Source of the DNA: an uncultured candidate division Zixibacteria bacterium
GTDB lineage: Bacteria > Zixibacteria > MSB-5A5 > GN15 > FEB-12
Length of the DNA stretch: 64,000 nucleotides
Direction: 5' to 3'
Assembly: GCA_963806185.1 (NCBI GenBank)
Contig: CAWDXE010000003.1
Span: 1-64,000 of the forward strand
Below the pieces are notes generated by a model. It was not told the origin of the DNA, ran no database searches, and was given only the letters and a program-made list of their open reading frames with translations. The position numbers were made by a program, and so were the translations under genes. Positions 29,170-34,844 of this stretch are shown here, piece after piece; the first letter of the stretch is position 1, and the number at the start of each line of letters is the position of its first letter.

Positions 29170-30495
29170 ATGAAATGGTCACGCATGTTCATGGTGATGC
29201 CGGCTCTTCTGCTCATGGCCGCGCCGGCCTGGAGCCAGTTGTCCATCGAAGTCGACGGCGCTACGCCGAGCATTGCCCCCGACAAAATTCCCGTCGAGCA
29301 GATCGTGCGCCTGCATCTCCGCTACCGCAATCTAACCGACAGCACGTATGTCAGCAGCAACGCCTTCAGGGTCTACTCGCCGGACGGAGCCACCTGGGCG
29401 CCATCGGGCCAGGTCGGCAATATCGTCTTCACCTCTCCTAATAATACCGGCGTGCAGGCCGACTCGACCGGCTTGATAACTAAGGCAGACGCGGAGCTCG
29501 TCTTTCACATTCAAGGACACGGGTGCGATGGACTTGGCGACGATACGGTCGATGCCGCGTTTGTCAGCACCAAGGCAAATGGCGCGGTCAGACCTCATCT
29601 GGACGGTCGTGTGCTGTCACTGGTCGTATACACAGGCGGCCCGGAGAATCTCGGGAAACATATTTGCATCGATTCCGTGATGCAATATCCTCTTACCAAT
29701 AAATGGGAGTGGTACAGAGTTTTTCCTAACCCTCCTTCACCGACCAGCATTATTCCCGACTGGAACGGACCAGTCTGCTTTGAGATTGTGTCTACCGGCT
29801 TGCCGCCCAACCTGACCAACGTCCCGGCCGAGATTACCGGTGAGCACTGCACCGGGGTCATTTCCTACGATTTTGACGCTATCGACCCGGAAGGCGACCC
29901 CATTACCTGGCGTTTGCTCGACGGCCCGGGCTCGATCGATGACGTAACCGGTATCTGGACAGCCGAGGATCTTACCCCCGGTTCTTACTCGATTACGGTT
30001 GAGGCCTCCAACAGCCTTACCGGCGGTTCGTCCGCCACCGTGCCGGTCAACATCACCAACGCCCCTCCCGTCGGGACGGCTCCCGGCGGCACGTATACCG
30101 CGTTTTCCGGCTACCCGGTCAAACGGCAGGTGACCGCAGCTGATACCTGTGATACATATACTTTCTCCTTCCTTGAATCCGGCGGCCCAGCGGGCCTGTT
30201 GACGCTGGATTCGGGGGATATCGTGACGTTCACACCTGAGCCCGCCGATGCGGGGGACCTGACCATCCTCATGAGGGTGACGGACCAGTATGGTGCCGCC
30301 GACACGGTCGATCTGAATTATGATGTTATCGTCTGCGGTGTCAATGTAGGCAATGTCGATTGTGACGCTGAGAACAAGATCGATATAGGAGACCTGACGC
30401 GGCTGATTGATTTTCTCTACTTGTCGTTCGATCCGCTCTGTGCGGGAGGGAAGGCAGAAGAGAAAGCAACACCGGTGAGGGCCGTGAAAAAATAA
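29170..30495 (+). CDS. Secreted protein: N-terminal beta domain, two Ig/cadherin-like domains, half dockerin (paralog 1)
   Basis: Signal peptide (APAWS-Q), FRVYSPDGA, DAIDPEGD, GNVDCDAENKIDIGDLTRLIDFL; SD aggagg. Confidence 0.85.
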   Translation: MKWSRMFMVMPALLLMAAPAWSQLSIEVDGATPSIAPDKIPVEQIVRLHLRYRNLTDSTYVSSNAFRVYSPDGATWAPSGQVGNIVFTSPNNTGVQADSTGLITKADAELVFHIQGHGCDGLGDDTVDAAFVSTKANGAVRPHLDGRVLSLVVYTGGPENLGKHICIDSVMQYPLTNKWEWYRVFPNPPSPTSIIPDWNGPVCFEIVSTGLPPNLTNVPAEITGEHCTGVISYDFDAIDPEGDPITWRLLDGPGSIDDVTGIWTAEDLTPGSYSITVEASNSLTGGSSATVPVNITNAPPVGTAPGGTYTAFSGYPVKRQVTAADTCDTYTFSFLESGGPAGLLTLDSGDIVTFTPEPADAGDLTILMRVTDQYGAADTVDLNYDVIVCGVNVGNVDCDAENKIDIGDLTRLIDFLYLSFDPLCAGGKAEEKATPVRAVKK

Positions 30496-30532
30496 CGAGG
30501 CAGGATGCCGACGCATCCGGTAAGGAGTTAAC

Positions 30533-31963
30533 ATGCGCACGTTCTTTGTTCTGACAATTCTCCTTTTCGCGCTGTTCGCATCGGGCGCGCTGGCCAGTAC
30601 GACGGCGCTTACAATTGATGGGACTGACGGTATCGTTAGCACGCCAGACGGAAATTTCGCCCCAGCCGGCGGAGTCATCAAGTTTCACCTTCGCTACACC
30701 AACCTCAGTGACAGCGGTTTCAATGTTCAGAATTATTTCAAGCTGTTCTCGCCGGATGGCGCGAGTTGGACCGATTCTGCCTTCGGCAATTTCCACGGAG
30801 CAAGCCTCGGCCCGATCGGCATCGACACCACCGGCTTGCTTTCCAGACAGCTCTTTCCCACCGTTTACTCGTTGCGTACATTCGCGGCTGACACAGGAAC
30901 TCCCGTGAAAGCCGATGGCATCAGCCCCGACTATCTCAGATTTTCCGGCGCCGGTGCCGACATCGGCCTGGGCTTACCACCCCACACTGATGTCCGAAAC
31001 TTCTCGATCATCATGCAGACTAACATGGCCGATACGGGCAGGACGATCTGCCTTGACTCGACGTGGAGCTGTTCATCGTGCGGTTCCTGGAGGTGGGCTG
31101 TTCTGTACGGCGGAGGTTCTGGAGATTATGTCGATCCCGAATGGAGTGGACTTATCTGCGTCAAGCTGGTCCACCCGAGCGCGATGGTGACACCCGTCAT
31201 GCAGGTTTGCCCCGAAGGCATTAGTGGCAGTCACTGCGGCTCGAGCAATTACACTTACGAGGCTACCGCACCCGGCGGCGGACCGCTCGAGGTTCGCTAT
31301 AATCTTTGGACAGGTCCCGGCAGTCTGGACTCGATGACCGGCGTGTGGACCGGTACTGACCTGGCACCGGGTGCTTATGACATTGCGGTCAACGCCCGCA
31401 ATACCTATAGCGGCCTGTATGCGATTACTTGTTGGTCGCAAGTGGTCGTCACCAACCAGCCGCCGGTTTTCACACCGGCGATGATGAGCCTGCTGGCCGA
31501 AGTCGGCCAGACGAGAGTCGCTACGCCAACAATCACTAACGACTGCGACGAACTGACGTTCACATTGCTCGATAATGCCGGCGTGAATGGTCCGGTGAGC
31601 TTAAATCCCTCTTCCGGAGAATTGAGCTTCACGCCCTCGGTTCAGGATTCGGTTAATGGCCCCATCACGATGAAGGTGGAAGTCACTGACGGCATTTCCG
31701 CCGATACCTTGTGGGTGGTCTGGCGCTTTGGCACGGGCTGTGTCGGGACGGTGGGCAATGTCGACTGTGATGCGATCGAAGGCGTCGACATCGGCGATCT
31801 GACCACACTCATTGATAATCTGTTCATCACCTTTACACCACTATGCGCGTCGGGGGAGGCGAATTGCGATGGTGATGTGAGTGGCAATGTCGACATTGGC
31901 GATTTGACGGAGCTGATCAATAACTTGTTTATCACGTTCGCGCCGCTCCCGGCTTGTCAATAG
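30533..31963 (+). CDS. Secreted dockerin-domain protein (paralog 2)
   Basis: ALA-S signal peptide; duplicated GNVDCD..VDIGDLT / ANCDGD..VDIGDLT. Confidence 0.9.
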   Translation: MRTFFVLTILLFALFASGALASTTALTIDGTDGIVSTPDGNFAPAGGVIKFHLRYTNLSDSGFNVQNYFKLFSPDGASWTDSAFGNFHGASLGPIGIDTTGLLSRQLFPTVYSLRTFAADTGTPVKADGISPDYLRFSGAGADIGLGLPPHTDVRNFSIIMQTNMADTGRTICLDSTWSCSSCGSWRWAVLYGGGSGDYVDPEWSGLICVKLVHPSAMVTPVMQVCPEGISGSHCGSSNYTYEATAPGGGPLEVRYNLWTGPGSLDSMTGVWTGTDLAPGAYDIAVNARNTYSGLYAITCWSQVVVTNQPPVFTPAMMSLLAEVGQTRVATPTITNDCDELTFTLLDNAGVNGPVSLNPSSGELSFTPSVQDSVNGPITMKVEVTDGISADTLWVVWRFGTGCVGTVGNVDCDAIEGVDIGDLTTLIDNLFITFTPLCASGEANCDGDVSGNVDIGDLTELINNLFITFAPLPACQ

Positions 31964-33409: not shown

Positions 33410-33440
33410 GAGTGACATGCGGTGACATAAGGAGTGACAC

Positions 33441-34844
33441 ATGCGCACACTCTCCGGGCTTCTCGTTGTGCTGCTGCTGGCTGTAACGGACGTAATGGCC
33501 AGCACGACAGCTATCAGCATTGATGGAATCACGGGGCTGATCAGAAACGACAGTGCCGAGGCAGGGGCAGTTCTCGGCTTCCGCATCCGGTACACCAACA
33601 CCAGTGATACCGGCTTCAACATCACCAACGGTTTCGTGGTCTATTCGCCCGAGGGCGCGAGTTGGACCGATTCCGCCTTCGGCAATTTCCACGGAGCAAA
33701 CCTCGGCCCGATCGGCCTCGACACCACCGGTCTGCTCTCCAAGGCGCAGTTCCCGACCGTCTTCGCCCTGCGGACATTCTCGTCCACGACAACGGTTGCG
33801 CGCGCCGACGGCATTTCTCCGGACACGGTCGCATTCTCCGGCGTTGGAAACGACATTGGCACGGGCCTGCCGCCGCACCTCGACGTGCACGTGTTCACGA
33901 TCCTGATCCATACCAATCCAGCCGATTCCAATAAGACCATCTGTCTTGACTCGACCATGCGGTACCCGTCGACCAACAAATGGAAATGGGCGGTTCTGTA
34001 CGGTGGTCCGACCCCCGACACTCTGATCCCGGGCTGGGGTGGGCTTCGCTGTGTCCAATTGGTCGGCAAGGTCTGGGATCCTATTCAGTTCACCTGCCCC
34101 TCCACTCAGACCCACTCCCACTGTACTACGTTTACCTACGATTTTAACGCCACGATACCCAACGGCACGCCGGCCGACATACACTACCAGCTGGCCAGTG
34201 GACCGGGGACAATCGACTCGCTTACCGGAGTCTGGAATGGCGGCCTGCTCGCCCCCGGATCGCACAGCATAACCGTTCGAGCCGTAAACATTCACAACGG
34301 TTCCTTCGCTTCCTGCACCGTCCCGATTGTCGCCACCGACGTCCGGCCATTGTTCTCAGCGTCCGGCTATCAGGCCACCTGCGTTGTCAACAAACTCAGT
34401 ACATTCACGCCGACGGTTTCAGGTGACTGCGACGCGAGAACGTTCACGTTGCTCGGCACCGATGGCGCCATTGGACCCTCGTCGATCAACAGCAGCACCG
34501 GCGTACTGAGCTTCACACCTGCGTCAGCTGATACAGCGCGCACCGATCCGATCGACATGACCATTATGGTACAAGATCTGTACCTCAGCGATACTGCGAC
34601 TGTTACCTGGCACTTTACCGGCGGCTGTTATGGCGTCAGGGGCAATGTCGATTGCGATCCGAATGAATCAGTCGATATCGGCGATCTGACCATACTCTTA
34701 GACTACCTGTTTTTGGGTTTCGGGACATTGTGCTCCATTGAGGAAGCCAATATCAATGGGAGAGGCGTCATCGACATTGGTGACCTGTCTTACTTGATCG
34801 ACTACCTGTTTATTAGCTACGTACCGTTGCCGGCGTGTCCGTAA
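33441..34844 (+). CDS. Secreted dockerin-domain protein (paralog 4)
   Basis: Colinear with paralogs 2-3; GNVDCDPNESVDIGDL / ANINGRGVIDIGDL. Confidence 0.9.
   Translation: MRTLSGLLVVLLLAVTDVMASTTAISIDGITGLIRNDSAEAGAVLGFRIRYTNTSDTGFNITNGFVVYSPEGASWTDSAFGNFHGANLGPIGLDTTGLLSKAQFPTVFALRTFSSTTTVARADGISPDTVAFSGVGNDIGTGLPPHLDVHVFTILIHTNPADSNKTICLDSTMRYPSTNKWKWAVLYGGPTPDTLIPGWGGLRCVQLVGKVWDPIQFTCPSTQTHSHCTTFTYDFNATIPNGTPADIHYQLASGPGTIDSLTGVWNGGLLAPGSHSITVRAVNIHNGSFASCTVPIVATDVRPLFSASGYQATCVVNKLSTFTPTVSGDCDARTFTLLGTDGAIGPSSINSSTGVLSFTPASADTARTDPIDMTIMVQDLYLSDTATVTWHFTGGCYGVRGNVDCDPNESVDIGDLTILLDYLFLGFGTLCSIEEANINGRGVIDIGDLSYLIDYLFISYVPLPACP

Follow-up and report, generated by a model that had tools for sequence, protein, structure and literature searches.

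The stretch of DNA studied here, 64,000 nucleotides (nt) at positions 1 to 64,000 of contig CAWDXE010000003.1 from an uncultured candidate division Zixibacteria bacterium (assembly GCA_963806185.1), is referred to as the window throughout. It carries an operon of four paralogous genes whose products each appear to join an N-terminal domain of predicted cohesin fold (the N domain) to a C-terminal dockerin, complete in three of them and halved in the first, with two immunoglobulin (Ig)-like domains in between. We suggest, with what we would put at about an even chance, that these proteins may be adaptors or extenders with a single socket, of the kind represented by ScaC of Ruminococcus flavefaciens, acting in a genome-wide cohesin-dockerin system for surface display. 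The genes and their modules are as follows (aa, amino acids; pLDDT, predicted local distance difference test; TM, template modelling score).

29170..30495, plus strand: gene 1 (P0001), 441 aa; signal-like N-terminus, divergent N domain of predicted cohesin fold, two Ig-like domains, half dockerin.
29236..29793, plus strand: N domain of gene 1, the most divergent paralog, on a long branch; E 1.7e-48 to a family profile that includes this domain itself.
30334..30441, plus strand: single-repeat dockerin of gene 1; second Ca-loop and helix missing.
30533..31963, plus strand: gene 2 (P0002), 476 aa; signal-like N-terminus, N domain of predicted cohesin fold, two Ig-like domains, full dockerin.
30596..31174, plus strand: N domain of gene 2, predicted cohesin fold via homology to the modelled gene 4 domain.
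31736..31960, plus strand: two-repeat, Cys-flanked dockerin of gene 2; pLDDT 94.7, TM about 0.75 to cellulosomal dockerins.
31976..33409, plus strand: gene 3 (P0003), 477 aa; architecture of gene 2, with the N domain at 32039-32617 and the dockerin at 33182-33406.
33441..34844, plus strand: gene 4 (P0004), 467 aa; architecture of gene 2, with the dockerin at 34623-34841.
33501..34067, plus strand: N domain of gene 4, directly modelled as a beta-sandwich of cohesin fold.

A preceding reading of the sequence alone (the sequence-only reading) had described four co-oriented genes 12-37 nt apart, each encoding a signal peptide, an N domain of about 190 aa with a motif beginning xRYxN, and two Ig-like domains, with no enzyme domain or sortase motif; this description holds. 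The four plus-strand open reading frames (ORFs) are separated by 37, 12 and 31 nt, an AGGAG-type ribosome-binding-like site precedes the ATG of each, and all four proteins begin with a hydrophobic signal-like N-terminus in a crude hydropathy test. The N domain with its motif and both Ig-like domains are present in the paralog alignment; Pfam Big_9 or cadherin-like matches were obtained for three of the four proteins, of which only the Big_9 match of gene 1 is above cut-off. None of the four matches a catalytic Pfam family, LPxTG is absent from all of them, and so are a lipobox and the Por_Secre_tail or FlgD-like C-terminal domain (CTD) that marks substrates of the type IX secretion system (T9SS). 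The gene 1 protein aligns to the other three at 33-35% identity, and the N domains of genes 2-4 share 61-69% identity with one another. Promoter and terminator scans came out near or below chance (6 versus 3.3; 3 versus 5.6), and no inverted repeats of at least 25 nt were found.

A word-indexed homolog search returned only three proteins, all from the window; homologs were found by profile search, and an alignment of 53 N domains served as input for an AlphaFold2 model of the gene 4 domain (pLDDT 89.5; predicted TM, pTM, 0.87). The model is a nine-stranded beta-sandwich with cohesin topology. In a Foldseek search of the PDB, cohesins came out on top (4uyp with E 6e-5, 5lxv and 4ums), and in a VIA-align comparison with 48,161 chains ranks 1-13 were all cohesins with Z 12.1 to 10.0, the best match being 4ums (Z 12.1, root mean square deviation 2.8 Å, 142 residues aligned) and the first non-cohesin a CLIPPER adhesin domain with Z 9.8. 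With cohesins as the top 13 structural matches, the earlier guess that the N domain is cohesin-like is borne out. Pfam Cohesin (PF00963) matches none of the four window proteins and none of the 53 family members, and a Pfam search of the 53 N domains gave no consistent family; the homolog P0071 reached an Atlas score of 0.88 to a cluster with 45% PF00963, where the line drawn by the tool is 0.9. We thus describe the N domain of the operon as a predicted cohesin fold that is invisible to Pfam. Searching PDB sequences with the N-domain profile gave matches to WD40 and calmodulin only, which were rejected as chance matches on a short motif.

The C-terminal module of gene 2 was modelled with two long helices (H19-31 and H54-66; for its pLDDT see above). 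Foldseek places dockerin entries at ranks 1-23, with TM up to 0.76 and no match at E<=0.001; against the clostridial dockerins of 4fl4 and 4dh2 the TM is 0.74-0.76. The dockerin profile finds nine PDB sequences at E<=0.01, all of them proteins of cellulosome-producing bacteria; the best is 5lxv_B (E 2.1e-5), and the two alignments that were inspected are to dockerins. Pfam PF00404 matches none of the four window proteins and has 28 matches genome-wide, mostly in ORFs of the same dockerin profile family. The model, the Foldseek ranking and the PDB matches support the identification of the tail as a dockerin. The two Ca-loop-plus-helix repeats typical of type I dockerins are present in genes 2-4, each of which has two DIGDL repeats; gene 1, to which the sequence-only reading had also ascribed a Cys-flanked dockerin-like C-terminus, has the first repeat only.

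Gene 1 ends ...LCAGGKAEEKATPVRAVKK, after that first dockerin repeat, and a second repeat, sought in every plus-strand frame between gene 1 and gene 2, was not found. This half dockerin is a single case and may reflect decay or an assembly error. The assembly surveyed comprises 3.65 Mb in 8 contigs and is 82% complete. Upstream of the operon, ftsH (window 25012-26971, minus strand) is broken across several frames, and the genes for a diadenylate cyclase (23266-24000, minus strand) and IMPDH (16174-17301, minus strand) fall short of Pfam profiles or of the expected length, probably through indel errors in the assembly. With such frameshifts near the operon, the halved dockerin is possibly an artefact of assembly. 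Group-2 dockerins of R. flavefaciens likewise have one Ca2+ loop and can be functional, according to the available text of PMC12270676; unlike them, the gene 1 truncation is a lone case in a frameshifted assembly.

The two modules recur well beyond the operon. An iterated profile identifies 92 dockerin ORFs in the genome, four of them the window genes; the dockerin lies no more than 15 aa from the C-terminus in 87, and 69 pass a crude signal-peptide test, compared with 99 of 300 control ORFs. The helix-end type F-I-[S/T/N]-F is found in 75 of the 92, including the dockerins of genes 2 and 3. Of the 88 dockerin ORFs that lie elsewhere in the genome, 13 match a peptidase family at E<=1e-8 (seven S8, with M12, M28, C10, M6, M64 and M1), and propellers, FG-GAP, lectin-C and PKD are among the frequent domains; at the same threshold none of the 88 carries a glycoside hydrolase family, so that this is not a canonical cellulosome. 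A T9SS-type tail is found in 57 ORFs, and with these profiles only one ORF has both tail and dockerin. The genome also encodes SprA, PorV, a PorU-like C25 protein beside porV, and two secretins. Pfam Cohesin gives six matches, three of them above cut-off, and an iterated cohesin search extends these to 17 ORFs, of which eight are T9SS-tailed and five more have a dockerin and no tail; the N domain occurs in eight ORFs (four in the window, three T9SS-tailed, one stand-alone), for a total of 25 ORFs with cohesin-like modules. The earlier statement that no scaffoldin is visible is therefore correct within the window and fails genome-wide, where cohesin-bearing T9SS-tailed proteins are found. That the dockerin is a C-terminal tag used across the lineage, one part of the alternative it had offered, is supported by these 92 ORFs and by the presence of dockerins in 147 of 151 genomes of the phylum.

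One of these scaffoldins, of about 880 aa, has the layout N domain-Ig-Ig-cohesin-like domain-CTD. It lies in a conserved cluster (L002, G000:C6:188879-198784; also L009 and L024) together with a cohesin-plus-dockerin gene and more cohesin-plus-CTD genes, and this cluster is likely where the core of the anchoring apparatus is encoded; the assembly has frameshifts in two of its genes. Profile-profile comparison found no similarity between the N domain and the second cohesin-like domain of this scaffoldin, which itself has weak PDB matches, four of four to cohesin entries (E 0.27-0.75).

Of 151 genomes of the phylum, 106 have the N domain, as do 83/83 of the order and 55/55 of the family, with copy numbers per genome that reach at least 23. 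At E<=0.001 and 50% identity the family comprises 1,587 clusters, which defines a large cohesin family missed by Pfam. Among the best 150 of these clusters, the C-terminal end is a dockerin in 59, a T9SS tail in 46, an N domain in 17 and none of these in 28; 70 have at least two N-domain copies, and the largest array seen, that of P0005, counts five copies followed by a T9SS tail. A lipoprotein-like Cys was noted by eye in six of 11 short single-domain forms. As far as architecture can tell, these forms are the ones used by scaffoldins, anchors and adaptors, which places proteins of the adaptor type in a candidate phylum that is diderm and non-cellulolytic.

The closest counterpart is ScaC, a monovalent adaptor scaffoldin (PDB 5lxv) described as such in the available part of PMC5429695. 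Like ScaC, the operon proteins are putatively secreted and combine, on predicted folds, one cohesin with one C-terminal dockerin (halved in gene 1) and no catalytic domain, and the ScaC structure is among the top matches of both the N domain (Z 11.5) and the dockerin profile (5lxv_B, above). Unlike ScaC, they come as four tandem paralogs in a variable slot of a diderm host with T9SS-like genes, have two Ig spacers and a Cys-rich dockerin and cohesin, share 9% identity with it and are known from predicted folds; the cargo here would consist of peptidases and of proteins resembling adhesins, and at E<=1e-8 it includes no glycoside hydrolase family. If the likeness extends to function, the proteins would be exported by Sec; with no T9SS tail, they have no evident route across the outer membrane. 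On the surface, a T9SS-tailed or lipoprotein carrier would present an anchored cohesin that receives the Ca2+-loaded dockerin. The N-terminal cohesin would be held further out by the two Ig domains and might in turn bind a second protein with a dockerin tag, for example a peptidase, a propeller or an adhesin. Since the predicted binding face varies among the paralogs and their dockerins are alike, their sockets may have different preferences, as in ScaC. If a socket admits dockerins of the common type, the proteins would join into short chains as a by-product, with cargo closing the ends.

The docking face of cohesins consists of strands 8-3-6-5 (PMC5429695, in the part available). In the N-domain family, strands G40-Y48 and D108-G114 were assigned to beta-3 and beta-6 from DSSP order and not from coordinates; over 253 domains, glycine occupies position 40 in 74%, position 44 in 89% and position 111 in 72%, and such conservation might provide a flat face suited to helix packing. 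A stand-alone secreted N domain elsewhere in the genome (L004, G000:C4:238040-238690, minus strand) keeps the family-consensus G40, G44, G111 and G113, unlike the window paralogs, and is a candidate for the canonical socket.

Several observations weigh against the operon proteins being ScaC-like adaptors. Genes 1-4 carry V/N/N/N at position 40, A/Y/A/G at 44 and D/R/R/A at 111; such deviant residues would fit altered specificity and also loss of docking. Identity between the N domain and solved cohesins is only 9-14%, and adhesin or pilin folds reach Z 8-9.8 against the gene 4 model. The halved dockerin of gene 1 belongs here too, and so do genomes with at least 39 dockerin matches and no N-domain match at 1e-5 (e.g. 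G023, G037, G050 and G068); the N-domain family is thus not a universal receptor, and either there are other receptors or some members are too divergent for the profile to find. We also looked at covariation between cohesin residue 40 and the dockerin within 104 proteins that have both modules, after dropping five rows that lacked position 40 and exact duplicates. In raw counts, N at position 40 goes with the F-I-[S/T/N]-F helix end in 10/10 proteins, compared with 3/94 for other residues; the association fails correction for kinship, with two independent pairs on supported branches (four on all branches; sign test p = 1), and with only two such pairs we treat it as a lead.

The setting of the operon was compared in relatives. 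It is bordered by two genes:

27559..28998, minus strand: tilS, which bounds the variable slot on the left and is transcribed away from the operon.
35163..37475, plus strand: purL, right border of the variable slot.

In none of the five relatives examined is the array conserved at this place. The tilS-purL interval of G024 is 142 bp long and has no gene, that of G040 holds one small dockerin protein, and that of G095 holds three dockerin proteins (an HExxH-motif protein, a BNR-repeat protein and an M14 peptidase); in G104 a dockerin protein lies directly upstream of purL on a contig that ends before tilS, and in G051 synteny is broken. The interval is a variable cargo slot and not a conserved structural operon, and the locus is a lineage-specific accessory array and not the core of the system. 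In G095 the three slot genes (L119, G095:C1:80135-87165) share near-identical C-terminal tails, which suggests tail homogenisation.

A search of 60 relatives with gene 3 returned mainly dockerin tails and the scaffoldin of 856-888 aa, with one match to the full-length architecture, a 507-aa protein in G104. In an unrooted tree of 50 N domains (three fragments dropped), genes 2-4 form a clade (96/85) that is joined to two T9SS-tailed proteins on contig C6 of the same genome (100/99), and the long branch of gene 1 has no settled place. A second genome has a tandem of three genes for an N domain plus dockerin (L013:754-3594), and these group with that genome's own scaffoldin of about 900 aa (L024; 100/99). 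Judging from this tree, the array probably arose by duplication of the cohesin-Ig-Ig front of the approximately 880-aa T9SS scaffoldin, with the tail swapped for a dockerin, and the simplest reading is that this happened repeatedly. The L013 proteins have no Ig spacers, and their dockerins have an altered first repeat (DRH vs DNL/DYL) and a consensus second repeat, which suggests single-face binding.

Of the other explanations, the one that fares best is that the N domain keeps a cohesin fold and does not bind dockerins; it would then be a head that has diversified for ligand binding or adhesion, carried on a stalk of two Ig domains, with the dockerin as a tag that anchors it to conventional cohesin carriers. 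We regard this as possible, if rather unlikely. The unrelated dockerin cargo in the slot of G095 and G040, the display of the same N domain with either a T9SS tail or a dockerin, the bulky and charged substitutions on the presumed docking strands, and the occurrence of cohesin-related folds in adhesins (CLIPPER, Z 9.8) are all in line with it. However, cohesins outrank every adhesin fold in VIA-align, the family makes tandem arrays and lipoprotein-like monomers that are typical of scaffoldins and anchors, and, in raw counts, the residue at position 40 of the docking strand goes along with the type of dockerin.

The sequence-only reading had favoured a dedicated self-assembling filament or S-layer-like mesh, which finds no support here. 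One predicted socket and one plug per subunit would allow linear chains at most and no mesh, any chain would be capped by the roughly 88 other proteins with a related dockerin, and the locus varies among the five relatives, which is not what a lattice-forming protein would show. What survives is a version in which the proteins are dedicated head-to-tail blocks, each cohesin preferring the dockerins of its siblings, so that a filament, and no mesh, would grow from a T9SS-anchored seed. Each full subunit does have a predicted socket and plug with two Ig domains between them, the genes are tightly co-oriented, and a parallel tandem triplet exists in L013; yet we find this version doubtful, as genes 2 and 3 have dockerins of the prevalent type, so that cargo would cap the chains, the array is absent from the locus in all five relatives with a single full-length match among 60, gene 1 has half a dockerin, and a valence of one plus one should not branch. 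A related and equally doubtful proposal is that of modular chain extenders, in which Ca2+-dependent polymers would be seeded on T9SS-anchored cohesins, paralog-specific sockets would set order and length, and peptidase or adhesin cargo would cap the ends; if true, bacteria would have a novel type of surface fibre with tunable length, one that Zixibacteria have come upon several times through the swap from T9SS tail to dockerin.

Least probable, and in our view very unlikely, is that the dockerin serves mainly as a sorting or export tag stabilised by Ca2+ and disulfides, or that the proteins are periplasmic, with surface pairing incidental: its nearly always terminal position (87/92), its near exclusion of the T9SS tail and the want of an evident outer-membrane route for tail-less proteins would agree with this, but at least two cohesin-fold families co-occur with the dockerin in the genome, and the pattern of Ca-loop and helix is intact in its two repeats.

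Returning to ScaC-like adaptors within a surface display system, the nearest published case is 'Ca. Stygibacter' of the Cloacimonadota, for which a cellulosome-like system with a CTD-anchored scaffoldin and dockerin peptidases was proposed in silico (PMC8542988, in its available part, which applies to what follows). It shares with the present genome a Gram-negative candidate phylum, a CTD-tailed scaffoldin-like protein and dockerin-tagged peptidases, and both systems are known in silico only. It has one scaffoldin of 3,755 aa with annotated cohesins and a few dockerin enzymes, including GH18 and GH57, compared here with some 90 proteins that bear a dockerin and with cohesin-like modules in 25 ORFs; adaptor arrays and a Pfam-invisible cohesin family are not mentioned for it in that part of the text. 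The literature search, which lay outside subscription journals and supplements, found nothing on Zixibacteria or Zixiibacteriota with dockerin, or on Zixibacteria with cohesin; a preprint on giant proteins of Omnitrophota (bioRxiv 10.1101/2023.11.21.568195) does not mention Zixibacteria in its available part. Clostridial type I cohesin-dockerin pairs (4ums, 3ul4, 4dh2, 5nrk) are the best structural matches of both modules, and the two similar dockerin repeats found here are as in dual-binding dockerins, such repeats being linked to dual binding in the available text of PMC5429695. Unlike the clostridial pairs, the cohesin here lies below Pfam detection and has loop insertions, a conserved Cys pair and three Trp; unlike clostridial cellulosomes, there are no cellulases or CBM3.

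To this the locus adds a probable tail-swap origin, a parallel case in another genome and an exchangeable slot. Its modules are a small, soluble candidate pair that bears on whether Gram-negative bacteria assemble cellulosome-like protease complexes on T9SS anchors, and on the passage of dockerin proteins with no T9SS tail through the outer membrane. They would be candidates for new orthogonal cohesin-dockerin pairs in designer scaffolds, provided that binding holds.

A further feature of the N domains of genes 2-4 is a block reading WTDSA...DTTGLLS, which contains a lineage-specific loop insertion:

30767..30844, plus strand: WTDSA...DTTGLLS block of gene 2, with the loop insertion; conservation is at the protein level.
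32210-32287 and 33663-33740: the other two copies of the block.

The block had been called nearly invariant even at the DNA level. This is right for the protein, where 24 of 26 residues are identical in all three pairs, and not for the DNA, with identities of 82%, 92% and 85%; at identical residues, identical codons are used in 12/23, 19/23 and 13/23 cases for the three pairs, which amounts to synonymous drift. Compared with the background of each pair, only the pair of genes 2 and 4 stands out (Fisher p 0.0017, post hoc), and the remaining two pairs are not above background (p 0.83 and 0.28). A DNA-level element or recent gene conversion was thus rejected for two of the three pairs and is possible for genes 2 and 4 only. 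GNFHGA-LGPIG, in the middle of the block, is an insertion that most sequences in the family alignment lack, and it also occurs in two genes on contig C6 of the same genome.

Three further ORFs deserve mention. An S8 peptidase ORF of 1,631 aa (L105, G000:C7:811787-816682, plus strand) combines four internal dockerin-like and two cohesin-like modules with a T9SS tail, and a 3,037-aa ORF (L001, G000:C6:179515-188628, minus strand) is a long stalk of tandem He_PIG/Big_9 repeats with a dockerin end of the F-x-G-P type. In the window itself, a 495-aa ORF (39480-40967, minus strand) with a lipoprotein-like N-terminus carries a Vps62-like domain and Toxin_10 (E 1.4e-11, over cut-off), a family of insecticidal binary toxins that is unexpected in this lineage.

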